Origin: Heterodontus francisci
Taxonomy: Eukaryota
Length of the DNA: 64,000 bases
Direction: 5' to 3'
NCBI RefSeq assembly: GCF_036365525.1
Contig: NC_090382.1
Coordinates: 34,207,298 to 34,271,297, forward strand
Shown here: one piece after another, positions 5,650 to 43,927 of the stretch
How the letters are laid out: every line of letters starts with the position of its first letter
How positions within the stretch are numbered: the stretch's first letter is position 1
Notes under the pieces: generated by a model
What the model was told of the DNA's origin: nothing
What the model saw: only the letters and a program-made list of their open reading frames with translations
The model's database searches: none
Position numbers and translations under genes: made by a program

Positions 5650-5967
5650 CATCTTTATTGATCTTTCTGATGATTGGAGAAGGCGAGGCTTCATGTGAAA
5701 CAATGCAAGTGTAATGACAGCCACTGAACCATTGAGATGTTGAAATCGTTAACTTACTGATCATGGTGTAACAGTCATTTGAATCCACCAGTTGCCCTGA
5801 ATCTGTAATCCCTGAAGATACCTGTTTGCCTCCCACATACCAAGTCACAGATATAACTTTTGGGTAGTAACCTCTTGACATACAAAGAAGCGTGCTGCCA
5901 TTCTGCTGGGAGATTTTCTCAGGAGGTGCATAATGGAGATCTACTGAAGGTGGTCTTGGTGAAATGG
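5650..5967 (-). CDS. Gene B: Ig C1-set domain exon (open frame, but upstream V exon is disabled)
   Basis: ttcag acceptor and gtacgt donor; 318 nt, phase 1/1; PPSVDL...LLCMSRGYYPKVISVTWY...YTCIVSHEASPSP. About 55% identical by manual count to exon 18998-19315, with the same length. Confidence 0.9.
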
Positions 5968-6755
5968 CTGAAATTAGAAGGGGAAAAGGCAATTAATTGT
6001 AATTATCTTTTGTCACATTAAAATGGCTTGGACTGTTACAGCTTTGATTAAATGTTTTCCTCAACCAATATTAGTTCACCTTTAAATCATATGCAATATG
6101 GTAGTTCTATACCCAGGCTCTTAAAAATATTTTTGTTTGTGTTTTTCACATATTTGTACTTTTATTTATGTTACTAGGCTAGTGCCTAGTATCAGAAGAC
6201 TGACTGATGAGGAAACATTAGAAAATCTTGGGTTCTTCAGTTTTCAAAGGAGGTGAACAAGACGGGTCCTTATAGAGATATATAATGTACTACTAGAATA
6301 TAAAATCTTCATCCTCAGCACTATTTCAAGTTTAACCAGTAGAATAGACCAAGGGGTCAGAGGTATAAACTGGTTAATAAAAGCAATGTCAGAACATCAG
6401 TACTTCATGTAAAATTTAATGTCTCAATTGATCTTTTGAGTTTTGACTGTGGAGCAAAATGGTCTGACTTCATCTGGCAGACAGTTGAATGCTGCGCTGA
6501 GGGGATAGTATGTTTCTATGGTTGACGTTGATTGGCTGAACAATCTCCTTCATTAGTTCTTATCTTTGTGAATTTTAAGACAGGCTTAATAAACCTGTTC
6601 AACTTATATACATAATGCACCCACGTAAAGTAAGAGAACATTTTATAATTTATTTGGGAAAGCCAAAACACACTATGATTGACAGATGTCCAATTAAATG
6701 ACATAGTACAGTAAGTTGCTCTGAATGGGCATCCTTGAAGTTCTCAAAGACTGAT

Positions 6756-7135
6756 CCATTTGTACCAGCTTCATCCCAGTGGCTCTGCCCTGCTCCATTT
6801 GTACCAGCTTCATCCCAGTGGCTCTGCCCTGCTCCATTTGTACCAGCTTCATCCCAGTGGCTCTGCCCTGCTCCATTTGTACCAGCTTCATCCCAGTGGC
6901 TCTGCCCTGCTCCATTTGTACCAGCTTCATCCCAGTGGCTCTGCCCTGCTCCATTTGTACCAGCTTCATCCCAGTGGCTCTGCCCTGCTCCATTTGTACC
7001 AGCTTCATCTGATTAAATTTGCCCTGCTGCATCTATACCAGCTTCACCCCATTAGCTCTGACCTCTCCATCTGTATCAGCTTTATCGCACTGGCTCTGCC
7101 CTGCTCCGACTGTACCAGGTTCATCCCACTGATAC
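6756..7135. repeat. 39-bp minisatellite in the V-C1 intron of gene B
   Basis: Unit ccatttgtaccagcttcatcccagtggctctgccctgct; 6 perfect copies from 6756, then partial and degenerate copies. Confidence 0.95.
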
Positions 7136-7599
7136 TGTTCCATATAAAGCGTATCCAAAACGTCATGAGAAAACACCAAAATAACCCCAACTACCACAGT
7201 AAGAGAGAAATACCCTAGATTAATACAGAAACCAATATTAGACTTTGCAGAATCGATTGCCTGTAATCGAAATGCTTGTAGAACATTGAATTTTTTCATT
7301 AACCTCCTGAGATAATCTAAACCTGAGCCCACTAAACTAATTAATGTTCTGTGGATGTGTTAAAAGGTCTTTAACTGTTGAATATTGTTGGAGTTAAATG
7401 TAATTCACTTGTCGGGGAGTGATTAGTTTGTAAGGTGTCGATGCTGAAGATGGAATAGATCCGCCTCTGGTGACCTGTATGTCATTCCTCCTCAGCAATT
7501 AGATTCCCTCTTGGTAATTTGTAGGAAATCAATGCACTTTTTTTCGTTTCATAGCTGGAGAAAATCCTCCCACCTGGTTAAATATTTCCCATCACTTAC

Positions 7600-7942
7600 C
7601 TGGTTTCACCTTCAGTGTAGTTCCACACTCGCACCAATCATCGCCTTCATCCCCACTCTGACAGTAATATCTGGCTGAATCCTCTTGTGTCAAGTTGTCG
7701 ATTTTTAAAGTAAATTCGCTCTCATTGGATCAGGAAAAATGGGGTTCGACCCCTAGCATGCGACTAAACTTTGTAGACCCCGGGCTCCAGGACTCAAGCC
7801 ATTTTATTTTTGAGGAGCCCGGTGGTTCATAGCCCCACTTCCTAATGAGTTTGTTCTTATTACTTATTCACTCAAGGGTCACTGACCCTCCCTCCTGACC
7901 GAGCACAGTAGCCGGAGCTATGTGTATGAGATCGAACTGGAT
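7600..7942 (-). pseudogene. Gene B: single-exon VJ-type V domain, disabled
   Basis: ttcag acceptor, gtaagt donor, 343 nt (3n+1). Corrected reading: IAPATVLGQEGGSVTLE*ISNKNKLIRKWGYEPPGSSKIKWLESWSPGSTKFSRMLGVEPHFS*SNESEFTLKIDNLTQEDSARYYCQSGDEGDDWCECGTTLKVKP. Early frameshift, TGA at 7868-7870 (B-strand Cys position) and TGA at 7730-7732. Confidence 0.9.
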
Positions 7943-8031
7943 CTGAAATGAAAGGGAGACAGAAAATATTCAGGTGAACTCCAATAGGGACAGCATGAAG
8001 ATAAACAAATACAGGGAGATCGGCTCCTTAC

Positions 8032-8077
8032 CCATTTGGAGGGCAGTCAGAAGAAAGGTGCAGAACATCCCCTGCAT
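8032..8077 (-). CDS. Gene B: signal-peptide (leader) exon
   Basis: 46 nt, MQGMFCTFLLTALQM+G, gtaagg donor, 89-nt intron to the V exon; paralogous to 13969-14014. Confidence 0.88.
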
Positions 8078-8225
8078 TTTCAGCTCGATTTCCCACTTCA
8101 GCGTTTTTTGATGGTCTAACACTGCCGGACTGAGAAGTCCCAGTGAAGTTTTGATCATCAGAAGAGGGTGCGTCATGTATTTTCTTTTTGGCTTATCAGC
8201 ATTTTGAGTAAAGAAGGAACAGGGC
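8078..8225 (-). promoter_or_regulatory. Putative proximal promoter/5' UTR of gene B
   Basis: Non-coding block homologous to 13665-13819 upstream of gene A (ctttactcaaaatgctga...aaatacatgac...caaaacttcact...gaccatcaaaaaac...gagctgaaaatgcag). Confidence 0.55.
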
Positions 8226-9009
8226 GGTGAAGAAGGAGTTGCTGTTTTGCAGTCCTGGGCTACAAAACTCCAATCCATACCAGGCAAAGTACTTTTGCTC
8301 CCTCGTGTTAGAAATGTGGACTTCTCCGCATCGAAAGGAGGCACCCGAGATGTGATCTTATTGAAGTAAAAACAGTAGATGGTAAATCTGGAAAATTACT
8401 TCAACTAAATTGCAAGAGTAGGATAAGGGGACACAGCTCCATGCTCACATAAAGCGGCTACGACTGAGTTTGGGAACTTCTTCAGAAACGAATTCCCAAG
8501 AGAGATATGAAACCATCAAATTGGATACTGCAGTAGAAGATTGGTGTAGTCCGGTTCACTGACACTAGGTACATCTGGATTTGAACAGCTGCCTTATAGA
8601 TCAAGAGGCCTCAGAGCTCTCTTCTTTACAAAGACAAACTACAATACACAAAAGTACATTCTTTACAGTGGCAAATTTAGAGATTTCTTTAGGAGACATG
8701 AATACACTAGATATGTTTTCCAAAGAGCTCTGGGATACGCAATTCCTCTCAGAAAGTTCTGACTGTCTTTTTCTTTGGTGCATTCACCACCATTTGAGTC
8801 TCCTTTGTTATTCCGCTTTTGAAGCCAAAATCACTTGTTCTCGAAGGATTACAGATATTTAAAATATTAAATAAAAGTAGTTGCTGCAAATTACATTTGA
8901 TCAATTGGTGTACCATCAAGTGGTAATACATGGTAAGAGCACTGTTGTATTACTTCTGATGAAACAAAAACCGGGTCAGAGGTACAGATATGCATGCAGC
9001 TTAGTTGAT

Positions 9010-10378
9010 TAGAGTCGTAGAATCATAGAGTTATACAGCACAGAAACAGGCACTTCGGCCCAACGTGTCTGTGCCGGCCTTCAAGCTCCTAACTATTCTA
9101 ATCCCATTTTCCAGCACTTGGCCCATAGCCTTGTATGCTATGGCGTTTCAAGTGCTCATCTAAATACTTCTTAAATGTTGTGAGGGTTCCTGCCTTTACC
9201 ACCCCTTCAGATAGTGTGTTCCAGATTCCAACCACCCTCTGAGTGAATTTTTTTTCCTCAAATCCCCTCTAAACCTTCTGTCTCTTACCTTAAATCGATG
9301 CCCCTGGTTATTGACATCTCCACTAAGGGAAACATTTTATTCCTATCTAACCTATCAATACCCCTCATAATTTTGTATACCTCAATCATGTCCCCCGTCA
9401 GCCTTCTCTGCTCTAAGGAAAACAACCCTAGCCTATCCAGTCTCTCTTCATAGCTGAAATGCTCCAGCCCAGGCAAATTTGTAGTGAATCTCCTCTGCAC
9501 CCTCTCCAGTGCAATCACGTCCTTCCTATAGTGTGGTGCCTAGAACTGTACACAGTACTCCAGCTGTGGTCTAACTAGTGTTTTATACAGCTCCATCATA
9601 ACTTCCCTGCTCTTATATTCTATGCCTCAGCTAATAAAGGCAAATATCCCATATGCCTTCCTAACCACCTTATCTGCCTGTGCTGCTGCCTTCAGTGATC
9701 TATGGAAAGTACACCAAGGTCCCGCTGACCCTCTGTACTTCCTAGGGTCCTACCATCCATTGTATATTCCCTTGCCTTGTTAGTCCTCCCAAAATGCATC
9801 ACCTCACATTTCTCAGGATTAAATTCCATTTGCCACTGCTCCACCCATCTTACCAGCCCATCTATATCATCCTGTAATTTAAAGATTTCCTCCTCACTAT
9901 TTTCGACACCACCAATTTTTGTGTCATCTGCGAACTTCTAGATTATACCTCCTATATTCACATCTAAATCATTAATGTAGACTACAAACAGCAAGAGTTC
10001 CAGCACCGATCCCTATGGTACACCACTGGTCACAGGCTTCCACTCGCAAAAACAACCCTCCACCATCACCTTCTGCCTCCTGCCACTAAACTAGTTTTGG
10101 TTCCAATTTGCCAAATTGACCTGGATCCCATGGGCTCTTACTTTCTTAACTAATCTCCCATGTGGGACCTTATCAAAGCCTTACTGAAGTCCATGTAGAC
10201 TGTATCAACTGCTTTACCCTCATCTACACATCTAGTCACAGCCTCGAAAAATTCAATCAAGTTTGTTAGACACGATCTCCCCCTGACAAAGCCATGCTGA
10301 TTATCCCTGATTAATCCCTGTCTTTCCAACTGGAAATTAGTCTGTCCCTCAGAATTTTTTCCAATTGTTTCCCTACCA
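9010..10378 (-). mobile_element. CR1/HER1-like LINE, 5'-truncated
   Basis: [10 protein letters not shown]...[20 protein letters not shown]; RT motifs; short-repeat 3' tail at the left end. Confidence 0.85.
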
Positions 10379-11129
10379 TTTAATTATGTAAAAATAAGTG
10401 GCTTTGGATGTTGCACATGTCCTTCAGTTGCATGAAGGAAAAGTGTTGCTTATTTACCACAAACTTAACCTGCATTAGGACCTTCATTGAAGAAAGCCCA
10501 AAGTGTTCTTTTCCCCTTCTTAACATTGTCCTGAAGGACTGTGTCCAGATTGGCAGCCAAAATGACCCCTAGATCCTGACATGAATCAACAATTGGGAAA
10601 GATAACCATTGTTACTTCCACTTATTAGCTTTGAGATCTCCTCATGGGCCATAATACTGCATTTAGTTAACCCATTGTTCAAGGTGGCGGGTAAAGCGTA
10701 TTAGCTCTGTGTCTGAGTCTGCTAACAACACAATACCATCTGTAACAAAATGCCAACTTCAGCCTGAACACAATCCTTTGAAACTGCACAGAGAAGGCAC
10801 AAAGTTCAGCACCAGCAGTCATGATTGGCATAAACATTTTTAATGTCTGCTCATATTTCAGAACAAAATATACCAATAATTATCTATGTAAATGAAAAAG
10901 AACACCAGATGCTGTTCAATTACTTTCATCAATTCTTCTTGAGGTCATTCAGAAAGAAAATCACAAATACAGCAATAAACATTCACTTCTATAATTAATG
11001 GAAACTGACTGGAATTCTTTTTTTTAAATTCAGTAAAGTAATACCAATTGAGCAAAACTTCTCACAATCTGAAAGTAAAATAGTATTATTAATTGTTCCT
11101 CACAGTACTAAACTACCAATAGAATAAAT

Positions 11130-11893
11130 TAAAGCAAAATACTGCGGATGCTAGAAATCTGAAATAAAAACAGAAAGTGCTGGAAAAACTCATCAGGTCT
11201 GGCAGCATCTGTGGAGAGAGAAGCAGAGTTAACGTTTCAGGTCACAGAATCACAGAATCACAGAATAATACAGTGCAGAAGAGGCCCTTCGGCCCATCGA
11301 GTCTGCACCGATGCATTAAAGACACCTGACCTGTCTACCTAATCCCATTTGCCAGCACTTGGCCCATAGCCTTGAATGTTATGACGTGCCAAGTGCTCAT
11401 CCAGGTACTTTTTAAAGGATGTGAGGCAACCCGCCTCTACCACCCTCCCAGGCAGGGCATTCCAGACCGTCACCATCCTCTGGGTAAAAAAGTTCTTCCT
11501 CAAATTCCCCTTAAACCTCCCACCCCTCACCTTAAACTTGTGACCCCTCGTAACTGACCCTTCAACTAAGGGGAACAGCTGCTCCCTATCCACCCTGTCC
11601 ATGCCCCTCATAATCTTGTACACCTCGATCAGGTCACCCCTCAGTCTTCTCTGCTCCAGTGAAAACAACCCAAGCCTATCCAACATCTCTTCATAGCTTA
11701 AATGTTCCATCCCAGGCAACATCCTGGTGAATCGCCTCTGCACCCCCTCCAGTGCAATCACATCCTTCCTATAATGTAGCGACCAGAATTGCACACAGTA
11801 CTCCAGCTGTGGCTTACCAAAGTTCTGTACAACTCCAACATGACCTCCCTGCTTTTGTAATCTAAAGGTCAGTGACCCTCCTTCTGAACTGGA
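11130..11893 (-). mobile_element. Penelope-like terminal repeat split by a CR1 insertion
   Basis: aaagcaaaatactgcggatgctag...aacgtttcaggtca continues at 11866 as aggtcagtgaccctccttctgaact. Confidence 0.7.
11245..11865 (-). mobile_element. CR1/HER1-like LINE 3' fragment
   Basis: ORF 11339-11794 is the CR1 ORF2 C-terminus; (cagaatca)n tail; 6-bp TSD aggtca at 11239-11244 and 11866-11871. Confidence 0.88.
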
Positions 11894-12034
11894 ATAGAAT
11901 AAATGAGTCAGATTGTGGAAATGTTTTGCAAGAGTTTTACATTTTTCTGTGTTATATTTCCATATTAGTCCAATGCTTTAGGGAACTTATGAATTCACAT
12001 ACTAGGTATCTGTCATAAATAAATTCAGTAACTA

Positions 12035-12230
12035 CTGGGTTATACAGAGGTAGGGAGGGGAGAGGACATGCTGGGACTTGAAAACAAGGATGATAATTTT
12101 AAAATCAAGACATTGCTTGGCTGGGAACCAATGTATGTCAGCGAGCACAGGAATGATGGGTGAAAGGGATTTAGCGTGAGTTAGGACATGGACAGTAGAG
12201 TTTTGGATGACCTCAAATTTACAGAGGTCA
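12035..12230 (-). mobile_element. Old L2-type LINE fragment
   Basis: IQNSTVHVLT...IIPVLADIHWFP...DFKIIILVFK resembles the L2 ORF2 C-terminus. Confidence 0.65.
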
Positions 12231-12874
12231 GTCATGACTGGAAACTACAGCACAATTGGAAAGTCAATATAAGCTTTATTTTAAGAATTCTTGCCAGTAC
12301 ATGTTTAGATCACAACCCAGCTACACAAGCTTTTTAAATAATAGAATCCAGCTATTCCCAGACAAATTTGGCATGGTCGCAGGCATAGGGGACAAAGGAA
12401 ATGTTGTTTTAATGATGATGTCTTTTAGTCTGTGATAAAGGGAGTGATGAAACATAGGTAAAAGAGTTTATGGATGGAAGGGAGACCTCCACCCTATTTA
12501 TAGTTGCCAGGCATGGCAGGCAATAGGGAACAGAGAGCTGGAGGATAAAATTCATGAGTAGTACTATATTTTTCATATTGTGTAAAATTGCCTACTGAAT
12601 AATATTTACATGTTAACTCCTGATCATACAACTACCTGTTCTAGGCACATTGCCCACTTACATTGTCAATAGCTCTTTGTTTTTACTCAGTTCCCTCACC
12701 CTTCAAAATGATCTCATTCCCTCTCTCCCCCACCTTCTTCACGAAGCCCACTACAGATCCCTTTCTAATTAATGCTCTACTTCTGATCTCCTTCCCCTCT
12801 CCAAGATCCTTGACTGTAGTATCGCCACCAAATGCTGTATTCACCTTTCCAATCACTCCTTATTTGTATCACTT

Positions 12875-13216
12875 CAGTGGCACAGTGGTTAGCACCGCAG
12901 CCTCACAGCTCCAGTGACCCGGGTTCAATTCTGGGTACTGCCTGTGTGGAGTTTGCAAGTTCTCCCTGTGTCTGTGTGGGTTTCCTCCGGGTGCTCCGGT
13001 TTCCTCCCACATGCCAAAGACTTGCAGGTTGATAGGTAAATTGGCCATTATAAAATTGCCCCTAGTATAGGTAGGTGGTAGGGAAATATAGGGACTAGTG
13101 GGGATGTGGTAGGAATATGGAATTAGTGTAGGATTAGTATAAATGGGTGGTTGATGGTCGGCACAGACTCGGTGGGCCGAAGGGCCTGTTTCAGTGCTGT
13201 ATCTAAACTAAACTAA
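12875..13216 (+). mobile_element. HE1-like tRNA-derived elasmobranch SINE
   Basis: Box A/B-like head (tggcacagtggtt...gggttcaattc), conserved core tgtgtggagtttgcaagttctccc, CR1-like tail ggccgaagggcctgtttcagtgctgtatct. Confidence 0.8.
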
Positions 13217-13664
13217 TTTCTGTCCGCAATACCAAGACAGTCCTTGCCAAAATTACCAACTACATCCTTTGTAACTGTGCATATCATCCCTCCTTGTCCA
13301 TATTAAGGTTCCATACGTGACCCTCTCCTAGTCCTGATCTACATGCTTTCTTTCAATAATATCTGTAAGTACAGGATTAACTTCCACAGGCATCCAAACA
13401 AAAGTCACATTCTCTCAACTTCGCACCACCACTATACCACCCTGGTGCTTGTCTGAAAAAAGGTCATGAATGTGTCAGAGCTTTCTCTAAATTAACCAGA
13501 GGGCAGTCAGCTTTCCTGCCACTCCTTCACTGAAATGTCAGTGTAAACATTTTCATGGAAAGGGGCTTGAAGCCATAACCTTCTGACTCAGAGGTGAGAG
13601 TGCTACAGGTTAACAGTTGTGCTTGATGTGAGTAGACTTTTTTAGGGCAGGACTGCAGAACAGG

Positions 13665-13819
13665 AACTGTTCCCTCTTTACTCAAAATGCTGACACGTCA
13701 AGAAGGAAATACATGACCCATCCTCCTCTGAGAAACAAAACTTCACTTCAACCTCTCAGTGCGGCGGTGTCAGACCATCAAAAAACAACACTGAACCAGA
13801 AACTGAGCTGAAAATGCAG
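13665..13819 (+). promoter_or_regulatory. Putative proximal promoter/5' UTR of gene A
   Basis: Homologous to 8078-8225 (-); ends in the ancestral start context ctgaaaATGcag. Confidence 0.55.
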
Positions 13820-13962
13820 TTTTGATGACGGGTCACTGACCTGAAATGTTAACTCTGTTTCTCTCTCCACAGATGCTGCCAGACCTGCACTTCAGCACTT
13901 TTCCAGCACTTTCTGTTTTTATTTCAGATTTCCAGAATCTGCAGTATTTTGCTTTTATGTTA
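13820..13962 (+). mobile_element. Penelope-like terminal-repeat insertion at the gene A start codon
   Basis: Same repeat family as 18576-18692 and 59053-59185; flanked by imperfect 12-bp duplication ctgaaaatgcag (13808-13819) / ctgataatgcaa (13963-13974); absent from gene B. Confidence 0.8.
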
Positions 13963-13968
13963 CTGATA

Positions 13969-14014
13969 ATGCAAGGGATGTTAAGCGCCTTTCTTCTGAT
14001 TGTCCTCCAAACGG
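13969..14014 (+). CDS. Gene A: signal-peptide (leader) exon
   Basis: 46 nt, MQGMLSAFLLIVLQT+G, gtaagg donor, 90-nt intron; split-leader layout typical of Ig/TCR V genes. Confidence 0.9.
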
Positions 14015-14104
14015 GTAAGGAGCAGATCTCCCTGTATTCTATTCTATTTCCATTTGTTCCCTATCTGTGCTCACCTGAATGTTTCCGTCTCCTTTCCTTT
14101 TCAG

Positions 14105-14470
14105 ATCCAGCGTTATCTAACACTAATCTGAGAATTCCTCAGTCAACAGTGAATCGTCCAGAGGGAGAATCGGTGAGACTGCAGTGTCTAACCAGCAGAA
14201 AAGATGATGATCACCTAATTACTTGGAGTTATGTACCGTCTGGAACCCCAACAATCAAATGGCTTATATCCTTCAGCCCGGGAACAAGAAGTTTTAATCG
14301 GAGGTCAGGGATCGAACCCCGTTTTTCCGGAACTAATGACAGCAAATTCACTTTAAAAATCAACAACTTAAAAAAGGAAGATTCCACCAGATATTACTGT
14401 CAAAGTAGGGATGCTGTTGAACAAGCGACGGACCGGTGCGGCTGTGGAGTTATCCTGAAAGTCAAACCAA
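14105..14470 (+). CDS. Gene A: single-exon VJ-type Ig V domain, intact
   Basis: tttcag acceptor, gtgagt donor, 366 nt, phase 1/1; GESVRLQC...ITW...KWLI...GIEPRFSG...FTLKINNLKKEDSTRYYC-QSRDAVEQATDR-CGCGVILKVKP; no RSS. Confidence 0.92.
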
Positions 14471-14574
14471 GTGAGTGGGGATTCGTTAGTAGGAAATAAT
14501 GACTGATCTCAAATATTTAACACATGCCTTGTGCGCTATTTGTGGCGAAGTTGTGTTCGCGATTTCCTCCAAAT

Positions 14575-17500
14575 TTTTTTTTATTTCCAAAATATACTTT
14601 ATTCATAAAAATCTGTAAAAATTACATTACCAGTTTCAAACAGCACCAAGTCAAAAAATACAATTCAAAGTGCAAAGGAGGTCCGTTTGCTTCATTACAA
14701 TCATGAGTTGCCTCACAACCCTTCCATTTCACATTTGTCATGCCATATACATTTTAACATTTTACAGCAAATAAAGATTTTCCCGATACAGTTCGAGGGA
14801 TTTCCCATGGATCCAGCCCCTCAGTTCAGCTTTGTGGGGGGACCTTACACTGTGGTCTTTCCCCATTGAGCAATTGCAGCAGCTGCCCCAAGCTTTAGTG
14901 CGTCCCTCAGCACGTAGTCCTGGACCTTGGAATGTGCCAGTCTGCAACACTCGGTCGTGGACAACTCTTTGCATTGGAAGACCAGCAAGTTTCGAGCAGG
15001 CCAAAGAGCGTCTTACACCTAATTGATGGTCCTCCAGCAGCAGTTGATGTTTATCTCGGTGTGTGTCCTTGGGAACAGCCCGTAGACCTGTGTTACAGAG
15101 CTGTTTGGGATGAACCTCGACAAAAACCACTGCATCTCTTTCCACACCTTTTTTAAATTCATTCATGGGATGTGGGCATCACTGGTTATGCTAGCATTTA
15201 TTGCCCATCCCTAATTGCTATTGAGAAGGTGGTGGTGAGCTGCCTTCTTGAACCGTTGCAGTCCATGCGAGGTAGGTACACCCACAGTGCTGTTAGGAAG
15301 GGAGTTCCAGGATTTTGACCCAGCCACCGTGAAGGAATGACGATAAAGTTCCAAGTCAGGATGGTGTGGGACTTGGACAGGAACTTGCAGGTGGTGATAC
15401 TCCCATGCATCTGCTGCTCTTGTCCTTCAAGGTGGTCGAGGTTGCGGGTTTGGAAGGTGCTGTCTAAGGAGTCTTGGTGCGTTGCTGCAGTGCATCTTGT
15501 AGATGGTACACACTGCTGCCACTGTGGGTCGGTGATGGAGGGAGTAAATGTTTGTACATGGTGTGCCAATCAAGCGGGCTGCTTTGTTCTGGATGGTGTC
15601 GAGCTTCTTGAGTGTTGTTGGATTCGCACCCATCCAGGCAAGTGGAGAATATTCCATCACACTCCTGACTTGTACCTTGTAGATGGTGGACAGGCTTTGG
15701 AGAGTCAGGAGGTGAGTTACTCACCGCAGGATTCCTAGCCTCTGACCTGCTCTTGTAGCCACGGTATTTATATGGCTACTCCAGTTCAGTTTCTGGTCAA
15801 TGGTAGCCTCTAGGATGTTGATAGTGGGGGATTCAGCGATGGTTAATACCGTTGAATGTCAAGGGGAGATGGTTAGATTCCCTCTTGTTGGAGATGGTCA
15901 TTGCCTGGCACTTGTGTGGCACAAATGTTACTTGCCACTTATCAGCCCAAGCCTGAATATTGTCCAGGTCTTGCTGCATTTCTACACGAACTGCTTCAGT
16001 ATTTGAGGAGTCATGAATGGTGCTGAACATTGTGCAATCATCAGCGAACATTCCCACTTCTGACCTTATGATTGAAGAAAGGTCATTGATGAAGCAGCTG
16101 AAGATGATTGGGCCTAGGACACTATCCTGAGGAACTCCTGCAGTGATGTCCTGGAGCTCAGATGATTGCCCTTCAACAACCACATTCGGTGGTGGACAAC
16201 TCTTTGCGCTGGAAGACCAGCAAGTTTCGGGCAGACCAAAGGGCGTCTTTCACCGAATTGATAGTCCTCCAGCAGCAGTTGATGTTTGTCTCGGTGTGCG
16301 TCCCTGGGAACAGCCCGTAGAGCACAGATTCCTGTGTTACAGAGCTGCTTGGGATGAACCTCGACAAAAACCACTGCATCTCTTTGCTTTGCAAAGACAC
16401 ATTCCAGGAGGAGGTGGGCAACCGTCTCTTCCCCACCACAGCCACCGCGGGGGCATTGCGCGGAGGGGGTGAGACTTCGGGCATGCAGGAAGGATCTGAC
16501 GGGGAGGGCTCTTCTCACCACCAGCCAAGCTACAGCTTGGTGCTTGTTTGAAAGTTCTGGTGATGAGGCATTCCGCCAAATGACTTTGGCTGTCTGCTCG
16601 GGGAACCATCCGACAGGATCCACCATCTCCTTTTCCCGTAGGGCCTTGAGGACATTCTGTGCAGACCACTGCCTGATGGATTGGTGGTCAAAGGTGTTTT
16701 CCCACAGAAACTGCTCCAAGCCGCTAACTCTGGACGAGCTGACAAAGGCCGTCGAGTCCTTCGAGACAAGTAAAACTCCCGGGAGCGACGGCTTACCGGT
16801 CGAGTTGTACTCGGCCCTATGGGGCTGGGTTGGCCTGGACCTGCTGGAAGTATACGAGAGTATGCTGCTGGCTGGCAGCATGTCAGAATCCATGAGGAAA
16901 GGCATCATCACCCTCATTTTCAAGCGGAAGGGGGAGAGGGCAGAAATCAGAAATTGGCGGCCCATCTCATTGCTTAATGTTGACTACAAGATTCTGTCCA
17001 AAGTCATAGCCAGTTGAGTCAAGTCTGCTCTGGAGTTGGTGATTCACCCCGATCAGACCTGTACTGTACCCGGCAGGAAGATCTCTGATAGTCTCACGCT
17101 ACTCAGGGATACGATCGCCTATGTACGGGACAGGAGGGTGGACACCTGCCTCATCAGCCTGGACCAGGAGAAGACTTTTGACAGGATATCGCACACCTTC
17201 ATGATGGACGTGCTCTCCAAAATGGGGTTCGGGGAGGGAATCTGCAATTGGATCAAACTGCTCTACGTAAACATCAGTAGCGCAGTCTCAATCAATGGGT
17301 GGGAATCGGAAAGTTTCCCGTTCAAATCTGGAGTCAGACAGGGCTGTCCTCTCTCCTTGGTCTTGTTTGTTTGCTGTATTGAACCCTTTGCTGAGTCTAT
17401 TAGGAAGGATGTGAGCATAAGAGGGGTGACAATCCCAGGCAGTGGAGGCACTCAGGTTAAAACTTCCCTGTACATGGATGACGTCGCCATCTTCTGTTCG

Positions 17501-18136
17501 GATCCGCTGTCTGTGCGCAGACTGATGAGCATCTGCGACCAGTTCGAACTGGCCTCGGGAGCCAAAGTTAACCACGGCAAGAGCGAGGCCATGTTCTTTG
17601 GGAACTGGGCTGACCGATCCTTTGTCCCCTTCACCGTCAGGTCAGATTACCTGCAGGTGCTGGGGATATGGTTCGGAAGGGCCGGGGCGTGCACCAAAAC
17701 CTGGGAGGAGCGAGTAGCCAACGTACAACAAAAGTTGAGCATGTGGGGGCAGCGATCTCTCTCCATTGTGGGTAAGAAACTGGTCATCAGGTGCGAGGCG
17801 CTCACGTTGTTGCTGTACATGGTGCAGGTCTGGCCCATACCCCACTCCTGCGCTGTGGCAGTCACCCGAGCCATTTTCCGCTTCATCTGGGGATCTAAAA
17901 TGGACCGGGTCCAGAGGGACACGATGTTCAAACCTCTGGATAAGGGCGGGGAAAATGTACTCAACGTGGCCCTCATCCTGATGACTACCTTCGTGTGCGG
18001 CTGCATCAAGCTGTGTGTAGACCTCCAGTACACAAACTCCAAATGTCACTATGTGCTGAGGTTCTATCTGTCCCCGGTGTTGCGAAGGATGGGCCTGATC
18101 ACTTTGCCGCAGAACGCTCCATGCAGTTGGACCACA
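14575..18136. mobile_element. L1/Tx1-clade LINE with 5' inversion
   Basis: 13-bp TSD atttcctccaaat (14562-14574, 18137-18149); poly-T at left; 3' part on - strand (CPRGGCGGEETVAHLLLEC); RT part on + strand from ~16713 (KTPGSDG, NWRPISLLNVDYK, GVRQGCPLS, LYMDD). Confidence 0.9.
15150..16182 (-). mobile_element. Nested non-LTR retrotransposon 3' fragment (same family as 39388-41000)
   Basis: GVPQDSVLGP, MFADDCT, MEYSPLAW...KKLDTIQNKAARLIG; poly-A tail at left end. Confidence 0.8.
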
Positions 18137-18575
18137 ATTTCCTCCAAATAGCCAAGAGAAAATCTAATTGTGAGGAGGAATGATATGCAGATCACCAGAG
18201 GCAGATTTATTCCCTCTTTACCATCAGCACCTTACAGTCACTCCTCACCAAATGGATTAAATTGAACTCCAACAACATCCAACAGTTAACAGCCTTTTAA
18301 CCCAGTCACGGATTATTAATTGGTTAGTGTTGAGGTTCAGATGTTCTTAGGAGGTTAATGAAACAATTCACTGTTTACAAGCAATCAATTCTACAGAGTC
18401 TGATACTGTTTATTGGATACCCTGTTGGTCCAGGGTGTTTTCTGATATTGTGGTGGTTTGGAGTGTTGCCATTCAACCCGTCACTTGGACGTGGTTTATA
18501 TGGGACAGAATCAAGCATGAACCAGGTGCAGAAAGTGTAAAGCTCTGCCAGAGAGCAGATACAGGCACCATGGAT

Positions 18576-18692
18576 ATTTCTAATATTTGCTAGTTCCGAA
18601 GAAGGGTCACTGACCCGAAACGTTAACTCTGCTTTTCTTTCCACAGATGCTGCCAGACCTGCTGAGTGGTTCCAGCATTTCTTGTTTTTATT
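18576..18692 (+). mobile_element. Penelope-like terminal-repeat fragment
   Basis: 9-bp TSD accatggat (18567-18575, 18693-18701); hammerhead-like ccgaaga-agggtcactgaccc-gaaacgtta. Confidence 0.75.
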
Positions 18693-18997
18693 ACCATGGA
18701 TTTAGTGTTCTCTTTCTGTACTATGATTCATTGGCTAATATGGACATTAATATCCAGTCAGGCAATATCATTAAAAGCACCATCTGAAGTATACAAACAA
18801 AAGTTTTTTAAAAACTCGTATCAGCGGAACAAGCACAAAATTAGACTTAATTTTAAGGAGGTGCGAAAGTGGGGGTTAGAAAATCTAGTGGAAAAATATA
18901 GTGAAGCTATACATTAAGAAACTGTAAAAAGCCTGCATGTTTTTAGTGTCACAATAGAAGAAAATTTGGCTAACTTTCCTTTGCCTTCTAAACTCAG

Positions 18998-19315
18998 CCA
19001 TCTCATCTAAACCACCTTCAGTTGATCTCCTTTCTCCATCGCCTGAGAAAATGTCCCAGCGGACTGACAGTAAACTTGTTTGTGTGGTGATTGGTTTCTA
19101 TCCAGAGAATATTTCTGTGTCTTGGTACATTGGCGATGCTCAGGTATTTTCAGGGATTTCAAACTCAGGGATGCTGATGGAAACTGATAACAGTTATGCC
19201 ATTATCAGTGAGCTGGCTGTATCGACTCTTCAGTGGGTCAGTGGACTTCATTATGCCTGTGTTGTTTCACATGAAGCCCTATCTTCTCCCATCAGAAGAG
19301 AAATCAATAAACAAA
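18998..19315 (+). CDS. Gene A: Ig C1-set exon 1, intact
   Basis: ctcag acceptor, gtgagt donor, 318 nt, phase 1/1; PPSVDLLSP...LVCVVIGFYPENISVSWY...YACVVSHEALSSP. Confidence 0.92.
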
Positions 19316-19958: not shown

Positions 19959-22900
19959 TGTTAAGACCGAGCTGAGAGGAGTGCACTGTTTATTCGAGTT
20001 CCCCTTCTCCACAAGTCATAACATATTTTTAAATTTTTTCCCATTTACTGTTACGGTTAATCATAAACTCTATTTTTAACCCAGAATAAAACACAACAAC
20101 CAGGTTTCTTTAATAAACAACAAAATTATCAGTTTATTATAAAACAAGTCTTAACCAGTAATGAAGCAAAGCATTAACACACAGATCAAAATATAAAAGT
20201 TCCCTTTTTACCTTACACACACACACACTAACCGAAAAAAATAAAGAGATTTACTCTTTAGAGCTCTAGTACATTAAACACCCCCCCCCCCCCCCCCCCC
20301 CCACAACCTGCTCCCCCCAAAAAATGCATTGGCCAAAATACTTGCAAATTCTTGAAGAAAATAAGAGAATATATGAAAAGATGTCAGAAGTCCTTTTTGG
20401 TTTGGTGTCCCAAATATGTATAAATGGCTGTCACTGGGGTCTTCCTATTAAAGGTCTTGACAGGCGATGTTGAAGATCAGTTTGGGCAGGCTTTCCAGGG
20501 AAAATGCAATAACAGGGGTTTCAGGCAGTTTCTTATACTTGCTTCTCAGCTTCTCAAGAGATGGAAAACTGGCAGGCTTTTCCAAAGGGCTGGAACAGAC
20601 TGGGCTGGGTGTTGCTATCTTGGGAAATTTTCCTCAACTGTCTTTTCAAACCATTGTCCATATTCCAACTCACTGTCCAAAGTGAAACTATAAACAATGT
20701 CAGGAGTCAAGCCTCCTGACCCCTATAAATCTTGACCTGTCCCCTCTCTGCAAACATCTTTCCCCAAGTCAAAAACAACCCCTGCTGGGAAATTATTTGA
20801 AGACGGGTGCCTTCCAGTAACTGTTTACAGTCCAGACCTCTCAGTGACCCTTGTAAAAAAAAAAATCCATGGACTCCTTTTCAGTTTTAAACCACAAATC
20901 TTCAAAATTTGACAAAAAAATAGAAACACTCATAACACCTCCATCCTTGGAGAAATAAACCCCCATTTTTAAATGTGTTTCATTGCAAAGTGTCAAAAAA
21001 TAGATTAAAAAATTAAAAACACCTTTTCACACTCTTACTCATTCATTCTTTACCAGTAGCTAATACAGTTCTGCTTTGTACCATCTTTGCACTCAGATAA
21101 CTCAAAGCAAAGTTAGATTCCAGATAAAGCATCTGAAATTACATTATTTCTGCCTGCAATGTGGATAACCTTTAAGTGATAAGGTTGCAATAGTAAACTC
21201 CATCGGAATAGTCTGGCATTTTGGTTTTTAAATTTCTCCACAAAGGCTAGGGGGTTATGATCAGTATAATCAGATAACACAGGTTAGGCCACAGTTGGAG
21301 CATTGTGTACAGTTCTGATCACCACATTACAGAAAGGACATAATTGCTCTGGAGAGAGTACAGAGGAGATTTACAAGAATGTTGCCACGGCTCGAAAGTT
21401 GCAGCGATGAGGAAAGATTGGATAGGCTAGGGTTGTTTTCCTTAGAACAGAGGAGGCTGAGGGGTGACTTAATAGAGGTGTAAAAAATTATGAGGGATCT
21501 AGATAGAATAGACAGGAAGGACTGGTTTCCCCTAGCGGAGAGGTCAATTACCAGAGGGCACAGATTTAAGGTGATTGGTAGAAGGATTAGGGGGAATATG
21601 TGGAAAAACTTATTCATCCAGAGGGTGGTGGGTGTCTGGAATTCACTGCCAGGAATGGTGGTGGAAGCAGAAATCCTCAATTCTTTTAAAAGATACCTGG
21701 ACATGCACCTGAAGTGCTGTAGCTGGCAAGGCTATGGACCAGGTGCTGGAAAGTGTATTAGATTGGGCCGGTGCAGACATGATGGGCTGAATGGCCTCCT
21801 TCTGTGCTGTAATTTTTCTTTGGTTCTATAACAGTGTCAGACATAGACTTCAAAACGCTTAAGAGCCAATAATAAACCTAGGGTTTTTTTTTCCACTGTT
21901 GAATATCTTTTTTTGGTGTCAATATAGCTTTTTGGAAAAGTATCCCACTGGCCTTTCTATGATGGATTCATCATTGTGTAACAGGACTGCACCTACCCCC
22001 AGGTCCCTAGCATCAATTGCTACCTTGAAGGGCTTAGTGAAATTTGGAGCAGCAACACTGGTTCATTAATCAAATGGCTTTCAGCCTCGCAAAAGATGCT
22101 AGCACTCCTCTGCCCACACTGTTTTTCTTTTTCTGTAGCAAATCTGTCAGTGATACAGATATAGTACTAAAATTTGGTATAAACTTTCAGTAGAAACCAC
22201 ACATCCCCAAAAACCTCATGATTTCTCACTTAGTCCTAGGGTTAGGGAACTCCACCAATGCCTGCACTTTTGCTGTTCTTGGCAACATTTGTCCTTGCCC
22301 TACTATTTGCCCTAGGTAGGTCACTCTCACTTTCGCAAATTCACTTTTGGCTAGGTTTATTATTAAATCAGTCGATTGCAATTTTCTAAACAGAGCTTCT
22401 AGTTGTTTCAAGTGATTCACACAATATTTACTGTATAACAGCACATCATCAAGATAAACTACATAGTTCGGAACACTGGCTACCACTTGATTCATTTGTC
22501 TCTGAAAGGTTACTGAGGCATTTTTTTCGTCCAAATTGTATCACTCGGCATTGGAAAAGACCGTTTGGTATGACAAAGGCCGATATTTCTTTTGCTCAGG
22601 GTGTTGAAGTGTTGCCAGTATCCCTTTAACAAATCTATTTTTGTAAGAAACGTGGCACTGCCCACACTGTTAATACAGTCTTCCAAACGAGGAATTGGGT
22701 AGGAGTCTGCCTTTGTTACTGCATTAACTTTTCTATAGTCTATACAGAGTCTAGTTGAACCATCAGGTTTAGGCATTAATACTACTGGGGAACTCCAGCT
22801 GCTTTGCCTAGATTCAATTAGGTGGTTTTCCAGCATGTATTGGATTTCTGCTTTTGCCTGGGCCTGTTTCTCTGGACTTAAGTGGTAAGGATATTGTTTT

Positions 22901-25900
22901 ATAGGAAAAGATTCCCCTACAACCACATCATGTGTGGCTCAAGTTGTACATTCTGGCTTATCCCTACAGACTCTTTTAAATGCTTTGAAAAGCCTTGTTA
23001 GGTCTCCTCGTTGTTCTGCATCTAAATATGAAAGCATAGCGTCCAATCTCCCTAACAATTCAGTATTAACTAACCGGATAGTAGGAGGTTCAATTTGAGA
23101 ATGGTCTAGGCCTCCTTCTGCCTCATCCTCTCTATCCCATTCATCCTTTCCTATCCTTACTACCTGAAATACCTGTGCTTGCTTATCCTCCTCCCAGCGA
23201 TAATATTGTTTCAACATATAGATATGACACAGCTGATTCTTTTTCCGGCAATCTGGAGTGTCATCAAATAATTTACGTACCAATTCTCTTGACCACTTTA
23301 TATAGACCTCTGAACCGTGCTTTCAGCAGTTCACCCTGTAAAGGCAGTAATACTAACACCTCATTCCCTGGTTGAAATGTTTGGGTCTTGGCATGCTTGT
23401 CGGCCCATTTCTTCATCGTTGTTTGGGAAGCTTTCAGGTGTTGCTGAGCCACTTTGCAAGCTCTTGTGAGCCATTCCAGAAACGTGGATACATAATCAAG
23501 CACAGAAGATTTGTCCCTCTGTTCTAAAAACATTTCTTTAATTAGTTTTAGAGGACCTTTTATCTCATGTCCATAAAGTAATTCAAAAGAACTAAAACTG
23601 GTCGACTCATTAGGCAAATCCCTTGTGGCAAACAAAAGAAATTCTAGCCCTTTATCCCAATCATGGGGATATTCATGACAGTTTGCCCTGATCATCATTT
23701 TGAGGGTCTGATGAGGGTCTAAAGCTCCTTGCGTCAGTGGTGGTATGCTGAAGACTTTAACTGTGTTATACCCAGATTACCCATAACTTCCTGAAACATT
23801 TTAGACATAAAATTGGAACCTTGATCTGACTGAATTTCAATTGATAATCCATATCGAGTAAAGAACTGGGTTAACTTCTCTACCACAACCTTAGCAGAAA
23901 TTGATCTCAAGGGAATGGCTTCTGGGAATCGAGTAGCCACATCCATAATAGTGAGTATATATTGGTGTCCCCCTTTTGTTTTCAGCAAAGATCCACTCAG
24001 TCTCCCAACACTGTACTAAATTGTTTCCCAAAAACTAGTATGGGAATTAGAGGTGCCGGTTTAATGGCATGTTGTGGTTTCCTACAATCTGGCACGTATG
24101 TCACGTTTTACAAAACTGCACCATGTCCTTGGACTTGGCCAGTAAAAATGTCAACTTAAATGTGAATAGGTCTTCCAGATCCCCACATGTCCCACAAGAA
24201 GAATTTCATGCACTATCCGTAATAGTTCCCGGTGATACTTTGGCAGTGTCCCTATCTGGTGAACAACTGTCCATTCTTCATCTGCAGGTCTGTGAGGAGG
24301 TCTCCACTTCCTCATCAGAATCCCATTTTTTATATAGTAGCCTTCCGGAACTCCCTTTCCTTCAGCTTCTGTTAGATCTAATTGTGCCACTTTATTTAAC
24401 TCTGGATTGGCTTGCTGAACCTTGATTAGAGAAGACTTATTAAACATTTCCTTTGGATTATCCAAATCCCCAAACAAAGTTTCTGATATTCAGTTATCTG
24501 TCTGTGGTGCCAATTGTACCTCTGACAATGGAACTTGTTTAGCCATTGCTCGGGTTACTACACATGAAGAAAAAATTCCTGGAAACTTTTCCTGCGACTG
24601 TTCTGTCTTTTTAACTTCACTTGGTTTTTCCGTGACCACTAGAGAAGCGACTACCTCCGCTCTGGCCAAATCATTCCCCAGGAGTAGGTCAACTCTTATT
24701 GGCAAACAATGGACAAATCCTACTGTTACCGTTCCAGACATTAGGTCACACTCTAGGTGCACCCGGCACAAAGGTACTCCCCACCAATACCATTCACTAA
24801 ATCCTTGGCATTCAGTGCACTCTCTGGTGGAAATGTTATGCCTTTCCACAGCAAAAGAGTTTGGGTGGCTCCTGTATCCCTAAGTATAACTTTTGGTTTA
24901 CCTGCCTCATTTGAGGGATTAGGAGTTACTTTTCCTTTTGACAAGAATTCCCTACAACTCTCAGGTACCTTATTCATAATCCCTGCACTCAGACTGGTTT
25001 TTGTATTTAGCCTTACAGCTGCAGTCAGAGCTACAGCCTGATTTGCTGTACTCTCAGTCAGGATCCCTTTCTCTGCATTGGGTTTGTGTACCCCAGTAAG
25101 TCCCATGGGTTTGCCCCACAACTTCCAGCATTCTGCATGAAGTTATCCCACCTTGTGACAATGGTAACACTTTGGCTTGTGGACTTCACTTCCACCCTCA
25201 ACATCTTCCTTTTTGGCCTAAAGAGGAAATCCTGGGGCATTCTCAGCTGCCCCTTCTTGCTTTTTGCCTTCCTTTCACCCTCACACCTTCTATCCTTCTC
25301 GGGTTTGTGGGAGTGATGGGAAAAGGGTTTGGGCTTATGAACAAGCTCATAATCATCAGTGATTTCCGCTGCCTGTCTGGCTGTTGAAACTTTCTGGTTC
25401 TCTACATGGGTTCTTACTAACGGAGGGAGTGAATTTTTAAATTCTTCCAGGAGAATTAGTTCCCTAAGATTCTCATATGTGGCCTCTACCTTTACTGCCT
25501 GTATCCAACGATCAAAATTAATTTGCTTTACCCTCTTAATTCTATATAAGTCCGTCCAGACAATCTCCGGAGGTTCTGAAATTTCTGTCGGTAAGCTTCA
25601 GGGACTAACTCATATGCAGCGAGAATAGCCTTTTTTGCCATCTCATAATCTGCAGAAGCCTCCTCAAAAGCATGGCATAAACTTCATGAACTCTGCCCAT
25701 CAACCTGCTTTGCATAAGCAGTGTCCGGCTTTCCTTCGGCCCCTTCATCTGTTTGGCTATCTTTTCAAAAGAAATGAAATTGCTTCTACATCCCCTGTCC
25801 TCAAGCCTAGGGAGGGCTTGTACAAATTTAAACAGCCCTCCGCTGGGTCCTGGGCTAGAGTCAGATCATTCTTCACCAGAATTTTCCTTGAAGTCAAGGC

Positions 25901-41487: not shown

Positions 41488-41800
41488 ACCTGATTCCACC
41501 ATCCATCTACGTTTTGCCACCAAACTTTGAAGAGGTTGATGTGAAGAAGACAGCAACAATTGTGTGTCTGGCTGTTGGATTTTATCCTGAAAGCATTTCC
41601 TTTAGGTGGCTGGTTAATAACAGTCAGCCAGCTTCTAGTTCACAAACCCTTCTACTGGTTCTAAATACAAATGGGAGCTACACTTCCAGAAGTGAGTTAG
41701 CAGTTGCTGTAGGAGTGGGAATCTGGCTCGATGCACACTTGTGAGATTCAACATGTTTCACTGTCATCGTCTGTGAGGCACAGTTTGAGGAAAAGAAATG
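41488..41800 (+). pseudogene. Gene A (inferred): Ig C1-set exon 2, frameshifted
   Basis: tttag acceptor, gtgaga donor, 313 nt (3n+1); LIPPSIYVLPPNFEEVDVKKTATIVCLAVGFYPESISFRW...SELAVAV, shift near 41710, then EWESGSMHTCEIQHVSLSSSVRHSLRKRN. Confidence 0.85.
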
Positions 41801-43149
41801 GTGAGAACACTGCAGTCTGCTTGTCTTTAACTATTTACTCCATATAGAATCAGAAGTCATAGAATCATAACGGCACAGAAGGAGGCCATTCAGCCTATCA
41901 AGTCCATGCCGCACACATCCTAATAAACATTAAATGTCCCAAAGAAACACCCAAAGTTTTACTTTAATAAAGCTTCTTCCAGATTTCAGTTCCTCTTTGC
42001 TGCCAAACTTTAATATTCCCCTCAAAATGTCTTCATTCGCTAAAAGGCCCAAGTCTACTCAAGGATGGAATATCATATCTGAGGAGACTGAGAACACCTC
42101 TTTGAAATTCTGGACAAGATAGGAGGAAAATCTAATGAGCAATCCTCTTACCTCTCTGTCCAGTTACAAACCTTCTTGTCCCTTGGCTCATATTCCTCTC
42201 TTTGCTAACATTAGTGAAGAAGTAAAGGTAAATAAACAGTGGAGCACTATGGATACAAGTTGCTAATGGACTATTTTTTGAGGAGTCATCTTTAACAACA
42301 AAGTAAAGAAATGTAGGCCTTTCATTTAGTTATTCACTTGCTGTGAAATAGTGGACTTGGTCATTTATTCAGGGCAGTTATAAAAGGTTGATATCTTCTA
42401 TTGTTTTGCAAACTGGACTAATGTTCCTATGAAATAGATTTCCAGATGTAATTGTTAACAAAGTTAGGATGTTTTGGGAGGATTATTTGTTGTGCTAGAG
42501 ATTGGTCAATCAAGTGCTGATAAGAGGTAGTTAGTCTGTACCAAACACTGGATAATGGATTGTCAGTTTCATAGCAATGTCATTCATGAATAGACTGACT
42601 TCAAGTAAGGTAGATTTTAATATATCAATGTCTTAAGAGCTTTTACTCAATTATCTTCTGGGAGGCAGGATACAATCAGGAGGAATGTTTTACAGATTCT
42701 CTGTAATGAGCTGTTTTGAGCTCAAAGGCCATTACCTCCCTCCATTCTACCCGGTCTTCTTAGCTTATTATTTACAATGAGTTAAATAACTGCAAAGTCT
42801 ACTTATCAGACAGAACATAAACTGTGATATTAGCTTGTGTTACCTTGTACTGCATCTGTTTCTGAACCATTAAGTGTTTTACCTGCTGTTAGAGTAATCA
42901 GGTTGTACTAATCAGGAACCCTAATGTTAATCGTTTACCATATTCTGTTTCTAGAGGTCTGAATGTGTAATTGATCATTCTGCTTTATTACAGAATTAGT
43001 GATGCTGTTTTACCTAGATATTCACTGTTCTCTGCCTTTACTTGCCATGTCTTATATACATTTGATCCAATGCATGTGATAAAGCTGTAAATATTTGTTT
43101 AATCTATCTAATATGTTCCTGTCTATGCTGTAGATGGTTACATTCGGGA

Positions 43150-43608
43150 NNNNNNNNNNNNNNNNNNNNNNNNNNNNNNNNNNNNNNNNNNNNNNNNNNN
43201 NNNNNNNNNNNNNNNNNNNNNNNNNNNNNNNNNNNNNNNNNNNNNNNNNNNNNNNNNNNNNNNNNNNNNNNNNNNNNNNNNNNNNNNNNNNNNNNNNNNN
43301 NNNNNNNNNNNNNNNNNNNNNNNNNNNNNNNNNNNNNNNNNNNNNNNNNNNNNNNNNNNNNNNNNNNNNNNNNNNNNNNNNNNNNNNNNNNNNNNNNNNN
43401 NNNNNNNNNNNNNNNNNNNNNNNNNNNNNNNNNNNNNNNNNNNNNNNNNNNNNNNNNNNNNNNNNNNNNNNNNNNNNNNNNNNNNNNNNNNNNNNNNNNN
43501 NNNNNNNNNNNNNNNNNNNNNNNNNNNNNNNNNNNNNNNNNNNNNNNNNNNNNNNNNNNNNNNNNNNNNNNNNNNNNNNNNNNNNNNNNNNNNNNNNNNN
43601 NNNNNNNN
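43150..43608. other. Assembly gap (N run)
   Basis: 459 Ns; hides the acceptor and start of C1 exon 3. Confidence 1.
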
Positions 43609-43927
43609 CCCCCCCTCCTCCCCCTCCCTCCCCCCCCCCCCCTCCCCCTTCACTTGATGCTGCCTCTGCAGGGCAAACTGTTGCAATGACTTGTTTGGTG
43701 TGACTTTTATCCTGCTGATATTTCCGTGACTTGGAGAGATGAGAACGGTCCACTGGATATGGGAGTGACGCAGTTTGAGATAGCTTTGGGCAGTAATAGC
43801 AGCTACCAGACTGTCAGCCAGCTCACTGTGCCGAGAGCAGAGTGGGACAGTAATCGCACTTACTGGTGTGAGGTGAAACATGCGTCCCTGGGACAGCCGA
43901 TATGGAGAGCTGTCAGTAAGGATCTGG
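43609..43927 (+). pseudogene. Gene A (inferred): Ig C1-set exon 3, 5' end in gap, frameshifted
   Basis: PPSLDAASAGQTVAMTCLV, shift near 43701, then DFYPADISVTWRDE...YQTVSQLTVPRAEWDSNRTYWCEVKHASLGQPIWRAVSKDL+G; gtaagg donor. Confidence 0.82.

Follow-up and report, generated by a model that had tools for sequence, protein, structure and literature searches.

An old inverted pair of UrIg-type receptor genes in Heterodontus francisci, damaged in this genome and apparently a third lineage of the family

We analyzed a 64,000-nt stretch of the genome of the shark Heterodontus francisci (NC_090382.1, 34,207,298-34,271,297, forward strand; hereafter the window, to which all positions refer), which contains two immune-type receptor genes, A and B. 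In our assessment, these genes are probably an old whole-gene inverted pair that makes up an apparent third lineage of the UrIg family, encodes likely membrane receptors, and has been damaged in both copies in this genome. Two non-rearranging VJ-C1 paralogues have been described in this family: UrIg, which is secreted and linked with the major histocompatibility complex (MHC), and UrIg2, which has a transmembrane (TM) region and belongs to the antigen-receptor complex (Flajnik et al. 2025, PMC12227049), where it is linked to IgH, TCR-alpha-delta and PSMB5. UrIg2 carries repeated C2-C3 units, forms V-V disulfides at a CxC motif in the G strand, and shows V identities of 50-60% among its members (PMC12227049). 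Genes A and B appear to be an unnamed third branch of this family. We found no description of this locus and no relevant "UrIg3" in the literature, a mention in the UrIg paper of Flajnik et al. (2023) or its supplements being still possible. The terms "ITIM" (immunoreceptor tyrosine-based inhibitory motif), "UrIg3" and "pseudogene" do not occur in the main text of PMC12227049, and the accessible part of PMC10751288 mentions UrIg only among family members.

A whole-gene inverted duplication

The start codons of gene A (13969, plus strand) and gene B (8077, minus strand) are placed head-to-head, 5,892 bp apart. Gene A has the plan leader-V-C1-C2-C3-TM-tail and gene B the plan leader-V-C1-C3-TM-tail. 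Both open with a split leader exon of 46 coding nt (A, 13969..14014; B, 8032..8077), separated by a first intron of 90 nt in A and 89 nt in B from a single-exon VJ domain (A, 14105..14470, plus strand, open; B, 7600..7942, minus strand, 343 nt, broken). The C1 exons (A, 18998..19315; B, 5650..5967) are 318 nt long with open frames in both genes and share 56% amino-acid identity. The original prediction, made from the bare sequence, had given a start-codon spacing of about 5.9 kb, 46-nt leaders, first introns of 89-90 nt, 318-nt C1 exons and about 55% identity, and every one of these lengths was correct.

Self-comparison returned inverted matches of 5654-6023 with 19311-18941, 7273-7529 with 18383-18137, 7593-8083 with 14477-13963, and 8072-8222 with 13819-13667, including the significant non-coding alignment that the original prediction had expected. 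The upstream block of gene A (13667..13819, plus strand), which ends in an ATG aligning with the gene B start codon, is 81% identical over 154 columns to the upstream and 5' untranslated region (UTR) block of gene B (8072..8222, minus strand), with a score of 161 against a best score of 31 among 200 shuffles. The conserved V-C1 intron block (A, 18137..18383; B, 7529-7273) is 79-80% identical, with a score of 247 against a best shuffle of 28, and may be a regulatory element. Searches of the 6.0-Gb genome, which skip common words, matched 2/2 candidates per block and placed each block at these two sites only.

We then surveyed a region of 264 kb, comprising the window, 120 kb to its left and 80 kb to its right. 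On the A side, the inverted collinear similarity reaches approximately 48900; on the B side, it extends some 25 kb beyond the left edge of the window. Because this similarity runs from the upstream block through the 3' UTR, with a decayed Gypsy-type relic at the matching intron position, the duplicated unit is the whole gene, approximately 35 kb. The relic occupies 21129..25133 in the C1-C2 intron of gene A and is collinear with the relic in the gene B intron at 62-69% identity. Leftward extension, as had been proposed, located further exons of gene B on the minus strand: counted leftwards from the window start, C3 lies at about 20.3-20.6 kb, TM at about 21.5-21.6 kb and the last exon at about 22.0-22.1 kb. 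No match to a gene B C2 exon and no third V exon were found in the 264 kb.

Genome-wide, the V search gave 17 matches (150 of 386 candidates scored), and E values below 1e-15 were obtained for A, B and one locus on chromosome C29 only. Here C1, C8, C12, C20, C29, C34, C46 and C47, when preceded by the word chromosome, are chromosome labels in this assembly; the A/B pair lies on chromosome C12. The paralogue count that had been called for thus adds one family member, the UrIg gene on chromosome C29, and no A/B-type copy beyond the two.

Placement within the UrIg family

The best single-domain PDB match of the gene A V domain was 9DMX, a UrIg2 structure (E 4e-18). We constructed a V tree of 49 rows, consisting of 16 UrIg, UrIg2, A and B rows and 33 other V domains, and a second V tree that leaves out one partial row. 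UrIg, UrIg2, A and B formed one V clade (100/99, 16 of 49 rows), the shark and batoid UrIg2 sequences formed a clade with A/B outside it (100/99), and the V trees joined A/B to UrIg2 rather than to UrIg (97/93 and 99/98). The C3 domains of the family also grouped together (98/93). Mean V identity of A/B was 52-61% within A/B, 37% to UrIg2, 36-37% to UrIg and 26-29% to IgH/IgL. Gene A C1, C2 and C3 each best matched the domain at the same position in the UrIg gene on chromosome C29, at 41%, 51% and 42%, respectively. That gene is the UrIg orthologue of this genome; counted by hand against the nurse shark UrIg in the PMC12227049 supplement, its identity is approximately 87%.

The G-strand motif CxCG (in gene A, RCGCGVILKVKP) was present in all eight A/B-type V rows and all six UrIg2 rows surveyed, and the two UrIg rows read SGCG. 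Because all eight A/B-type V rows share the CxCG of UrIg2, A/B chains would probably form UrIg2-like covalent homodimers. Complex prediction for an A-type homodimer gave 0.29 (mark 0.42), which is not evidence either way.

A/B and UrIg2 (PMC12227049) are alike in their split leader, single-exon VJ, C1-type domains corresponding by position, G-strand CxC, TM exon and gene conversion among C exons, and they are sister groups in the V trees. They differ in that V identity between them is only about 37%, in that UrIg2 has repeated C2-C3 units whereas A/B have three or two C domains, an inverted arrangement and, on A, an ITIM-like tail, and in their neighbors, which are CYP26B1-like and matrin-like genes for A/B and IgH/TCR genes for UrIg2. 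UrIg and gene A share the V-C1-C2-C3 plan and the absence of rearrangement, with C2 about 50% identical; as described in PMC12227049 and PMC10751288, however, UrIg is a secreted protein with MHC linkage, a single G-strand cysteine and conservation at about 80% V identity, whereas A/B are of membrane type and more divergent. Traits of the UrIg/UrIg2 family further include a disulfide-linked homodimer and expression in liver or gill rather than in lymphocytes.

On these grounds, we rejected A/B as the UrIg orthologue, given their TM exons, V identities of 33-40% to UrIg, and the true orthologue on chromosome C29. We likewise rejected them as UrIg2 orthologues: mean V identity is 37%, they fall outside the 100/99 clade, both types co-occur in two species, and A/B lack C2-C3 repeats, as A has three C exons and B only two over the 264 kb. 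A tandem C1 array on chromosome C46 and an array on chromosome C8, considered as UrIg2 repeats, proved to be IgL-type clusters.

A different origin, which we find scarcely credible, would be from an Ig/TCR cluster that once rearranged, with A/B as its germline-joined products. Sharks do have germline-joined Ig genes such as IgL lambda (PMC12227049), and a single RSS-like (recombination signal sequence) element with a 23-nt spacer lies in the V-C1 intron of gene B. However, V identity to rearranging IgH/IgL is 21-35%, the G strand reads CxCG and not F/WGxG, no RSS was detected at either V end of A or B while three of three rearranging controls were positive, no J-like segment is present, and the single-exon plan is kept across shark orders, the V exons ending in LKVKP at the splice donor. 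The RSS-like element itself (7195-7233, plus strand, CACAGTA, ACAGAAACC) is in J-type orientation for gene B and is the sole match with up to 2 mismatches in the 264 kb; a 200-kb control contained one further match. The homologous gene A site has only a degenerate form of it, and with no J-like segment after it, it is probably a chance occurrence. The same intron also holds a tandem repeat with a 39-bp unit (6751-7131).

Orthologues and age of the pair

We searched for orthologues using HMMER against cluster representatives, which returned 202 proteins at E<=0.001; 13 sequences were examined and 15 names checked. The closest full-length single-V matches were unnamed or automatically annotated shark models. 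A-type orthologues were found in the bamboo shark (chiPu_0010575, an open V-C1-C2-C3-TM) and the cloudy catshark (scyTo_0006168), and B-type orthologues were chiPu_0010574, scyTo_0006167, Scyliorhinus canicula XP_038651300, Mustelus XP_078087760 and a whale shark model. The B type is open as V-C1-C3-TM in two catsharks and Mustelus, and the full-length B-type proteins lack C2, as gene B does. An earlier search of the gene A V domain against longer proteins matched 0 of 105 candidates at E<=1e-8, a weak search given that HMMER later found the orthologues. In Scyliorhinus torazame, scyTo_0006166, scyTo_0006167 and scyTo_0006168 are a CYP26B1-like gene, B and A on one contig, and in the bamboo shark chiPu_0010574 and chiPu_0010575 have adjacent tags.

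In the C1 tree, gene A grouped with the bamboo shark and catshark A-type sequences (100/98) and gene B with the catshark and Mustelus B-type sequences (99/92). Because each of these clades mixes shark orders, the inversion would be older than the divergence between horn, carpet and ground sharks. Synonymous divergence (dS) between A and B was 0.64 (0.39-1.03) in C1 and 0.83 (0.52-1.34) in V, and together with the C1 clades over three shark orders it supports the prediction that an immune-type receptor gene underwent inverted duplication long ago. The tree topology suggests that the third lineage itself predates the shark-batoid split.

Damage, transcription and sequence evolution

Both genes are damaged in this genome. 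When gene B is translated from its ATG, a frameshift near 7920 leads to a stop 23 codons into V, and two further stops interrupt the V frame (TGA at 7868-7870 and 7730-7732). Gene A is open in its leader, V, C1, TM and tail exons and frameshifted in C2 and C3. The 314-nt C2 exon (41488..41801, plus strand) has a frameshift near 41712 and a stop at 41742-41744, where a DNA contig agrees with the assembly, and the C3 exon (43134..43927, plus strand) has a frameshift near 43702 and an uninformative run of N in its 5' part.

Read contigs came from DNA runs and putative RNA runs, whose RNA status is a guess, of one sample that is possibly the source of the assembly itself. Assembly error behind the lesions was ruled out, as the DNA contigs of this same sample match the assembly at the lesion sites; over 7200-9039 the DNA contig is identical to the assembly, and a putative RNA contig carries both V stops of gene B. 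Because putative RNA contigs bridge exons of each gene, both genes yield spliced products in this sample. For gene A, these contigs bridge leader-V and C3-TM-last exon; for gene B, one joins the leader to V, and contigs from three putative RNA runs leave V at its splice donor. The putative RNA contigs give no coverage over the C1 and C2 exons of gene A and are uninformative there. Judging from the exon lengths, a V-C1-TM exon skip of gene A would stay in frame; no such transcript was present among the spliced contigs, which do not cover C1.

In the span 13811-13975 at the start of gene A, a short interspersed repeat (13817..13968) has AATGCA on either side, and the downstream copy of this duplicated sequence supplies the gene with a new ATG, leaving a 3-codon upstream open reading frame (ORF). 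Within the gene A V exon, a DNA contig differs from the assembly at 14238 and 14362 (one change synonymous, one N to D), probably as a second allele. Approximately 19.5 kb left of the window, a 52-nt stretch repeats the 3' end of gene B C3 together with its flank; this copy is situated some 800 bp upstream of that exon.

The C3 exons of A and B are 91% identical, with a dS of 0.18 (0.07-0.31). Because these two exons form a group of their own (98/98) in the C3 tree and their dS is far below that of C1 and V, C3 appears to have been homogenised by later gene conversion in this lineage. The ratio dN/dS between A and B was 0.37 in V, 0.43 in C1, 0.41 in C3 and 0.71 in TM, all with wide intervals. 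The comparison of V loops with C1 suggested by the original prediction was thus carried out for whole domains, with the loops not separated; it gave no sign of positive selection in V, C1, C3 or TM. The values of 0.37-0.43 in V, C1 and C3 are consistent with past purifying selection.

Transmembrane and cytoplasmic regions

The TM exon of gene A (44358..44492, plus strand) encodes no charged TM residue, and none was present in gene B or in the five orthologous TMs aligned. The last coding exon of gene A (45828..45970, plus strand) encodes a tail with the motifs STYENV and VQYKVL, which we take to fit the ITIM consensus. The catshark A-type model carries SVYQNV-YYKV, and the bamboo shark A model ends differently. 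The gene B tail reads STYANT, and the catshark and Mustelus B models have no such motif, ending a short way past the TM. By analogy, gene A, where intact, would likely work like an inhibitory receptor. Receptors of the SIRP-alpha type (V-C1-C1-ITIM), PRARP and VJC1 presumably combine V and C1 ectodomains with a tyrosine-motif tail in the same manner, a likeness drawn from descriptions only; the A/B V domains, in contrast, group with UrIg/UrIg2 and have no activating partner and no expanded cluster. PRARP is named in PMC10751288.

The original prediction had further proposed a birth-and-death cluster, possibly with shared regulation or paired inhibitory and activating members. In full, this would make A and B an inhibitory and activating couple in such a cluster under shared bidirectional control. 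The head-to-head layout, the ITIM-like tail on A only and the decay of the copies are what such a couple might show. However, the TMs are uncharged in A, B and all five orthologues, the ITIM-like motifs are lost from the B tail, only two copies exist in the 264 kb and genome-wide although both are decaying, and each gene keeps its own upstream block, much of the 5.9 kb between A and B being repeat sequence. We therefore consider this arrangement quite improbable.

Weighing the placement

Several observations weigh against a third lineage of membrane receptors that is old and now damaged. Monophyly of A and B in V reached only 94/92 when one partial row was left out and did not resolve in the 49-row tree. 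The C3 tree placed UrIg with UrIg2 and excluded A/B (95/86), in conflict with the V trees, and an AU (approximately unbiased) test of UrIg+UrIg2 as a clade was borderline (p 0.0496). The V and C3 trees thus disagree on the order in which the three lineages split. No batoid, squalomorph or chimaera orthologue was among the proteins matched, and, among the gene models that serve as orthologues, three are partial or odd. For catshark A, as for B in the bamboo shark and the whale shark, the model is truncated or skips exons, which may reflect either reciprocal decay of A or B in different shark lineages or poor models. The ITIM-like tail is present in only two of three A-type sequences. The contigs derive from one sample, perhaps the assembly source, with rare alleles dropped and the RNA nature of the runs guessed. 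Finally, UrIg2 V was absent from the matches in this assembly with two UrIg2 queries (17 and 128 candidates), so that this genome does not show all three lineages together.

This last absence would be expected if A/B were simply the UrIg2 of this species, moved and diverged, and UrIg2 is indeed fast-evolving and plastic (PMC12227049). However, S. torazame carries UrIg2, A and B, and the whale shark carries UrIg2 and B, as separate proteins; the UrIg2 clade excludes A/B at 100/99; and A/B lack the C2-C3 repeats. Moreover, because several UrIg2 records sit on small scaffolds, an assembly can miss UrIg2. A relocated UrIg2 is thus very improbable, and a separate lineage remains the preferred reading.

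Chromosomal setting

The pair sits between a CYP26B1-like gene of cartilaginous-fish type and a matrin-family gene, and the CYP26B1-like gene also adjoins the pair in the catshark. The neighboring CYP26 exon shows 100% identity to a horn shark protein. UrIg sits on chromosome C29 and the IgM cluster, with the IgH V matches, on chromosome C34, both distinct from chromosome C12. With respect to the linkage known for UrIg2, no other Ig/TCR V or C1 match was found on chromosome C12 among the 17 and 150 listed, and PSMB5 was not located. The CYP26B1-like paralogue, approximately 36-66 kb left of the window, occurs in sharks, batoids and chimaera and is distinct from CYP26B1 on chromosome C1; its closest matches among the 120 listed were all from cartilaginous fish, barring a few multi-domain or merged models. 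To the right, a divergent matrin-family gene (about 57500-64000 and beyond, minus strand) has two RRM exons and a zinc finger; we could assign it to none of MATR3, RBM20 and ZNF638. A 25-kb short tandem repeat array, about 91-116 kb left of the window, yields very long spurious ORFs.

By gene content, chromosomes C12 and C1 carry paralogous segments, marked by CYP26 genes (chromosomes C12, C1 and C20), REEP-family genes (7 matches, including chromosome C12 at 34.76 Mb, chromosome C1 at 36.91 Mb, and chromosomes C20 and C47), and exons of CTLH-family, RMND5-like genes (chromosome C12 at 35.15 Mb and chromosome C1 at 36.50 Mb). We take these segments to correspond to human 5q31-35 and 2p11-13. 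Beside the RMND5-like gene on chromosome C1, CD8-alpha V exons are found at 36.34 and 36.43 Mb (E 1.6e-28). These two near-identical exons are separated by approximately 92 kb and belong to a duplicated segment, either a recent duplication or an assembly duplicate.

This setting raises the possibility that the pair is a relic of whole-genome duplication, in which a pre-duplication VJ gene in a CYP26-matrin-REEP-RMND5 block left the UrIg-like pair on chromosome C12 and CD8 on chromosome C1. Beyond the shared markers and the CD8-alpha exons, identities between the three UrIg lineages are all about the same, at 34-37%. On the other side, the V trees set A/B with UrIg2 (97/93 and 99/98, with CD8 outside the tree), and the TM resembles that of UrIg2. 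The pair lies 0.9 Mb from its RMND5-like gene, whereas CD8 lies within 0.1 Mb of the paralogue. No orthologue was found outside galeomorph sharks, and later transposition, with the CD8 parallel as a coincidence, explains the position equally well. We regard such a relic as unlikely, and hold with similar doubt that a third UrIg lineage with an inhibitory tail has resided on the CD8-paralogous segment since the vertebrate genome duplications. If this were true, non-rearranging precursors of antigen receptors would have existed on another ancestral chromosome in addition to the proto-MHC, and a single ancestral VJ locus would have left both CD8 and the third UrIg lineage as its relics.

Proposed history and implications

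Under the preferred reading of an old inverted pair forming its own UrIg lineage, a UrIg2-like gene may have been copied into the interval between the CYP26B1-like and matrin-like genes before sharks and batoids split, and a head-to-head duplication would have followed before the three galeomorph orders parted. Gene B would then have lost C2, and C3 would later have been homogenised by conversion in this lineage. Intact chains may form a disulfide-linked homodimer through the G-strand CxC, as in UrIg2, and bind a fixed ligand; intact A would send an inhibitory signal through its tail tyrosine motifs, and intact B may be a non-signalling or decoy form. In this genome, B would be a transcribed pseudogene, and the most that A could still produce is either a secreted, truncated V-C1 fragment or a V-C1-TM form that arises by exon skipping.

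An inverted duplication is in itself ordinary. In the published work, UrIg and UrIg2 stand as the best candidates for relatives of the gene whose splitting by the RAG transposon gave rise to antibodies and T-cell receptors. The model of PMC12227049 has two paralogues, one linked to the MHC and one to the antigen-receptor complex, and a third lineage on another chromosome would alter this family history. Gene A would be the first family member with an ITIM-like tail in the literature searched, offering a signalling function that can be tested. The open copies in catsharks and the bamboo shark make the lineage directly accessible to such experiments.

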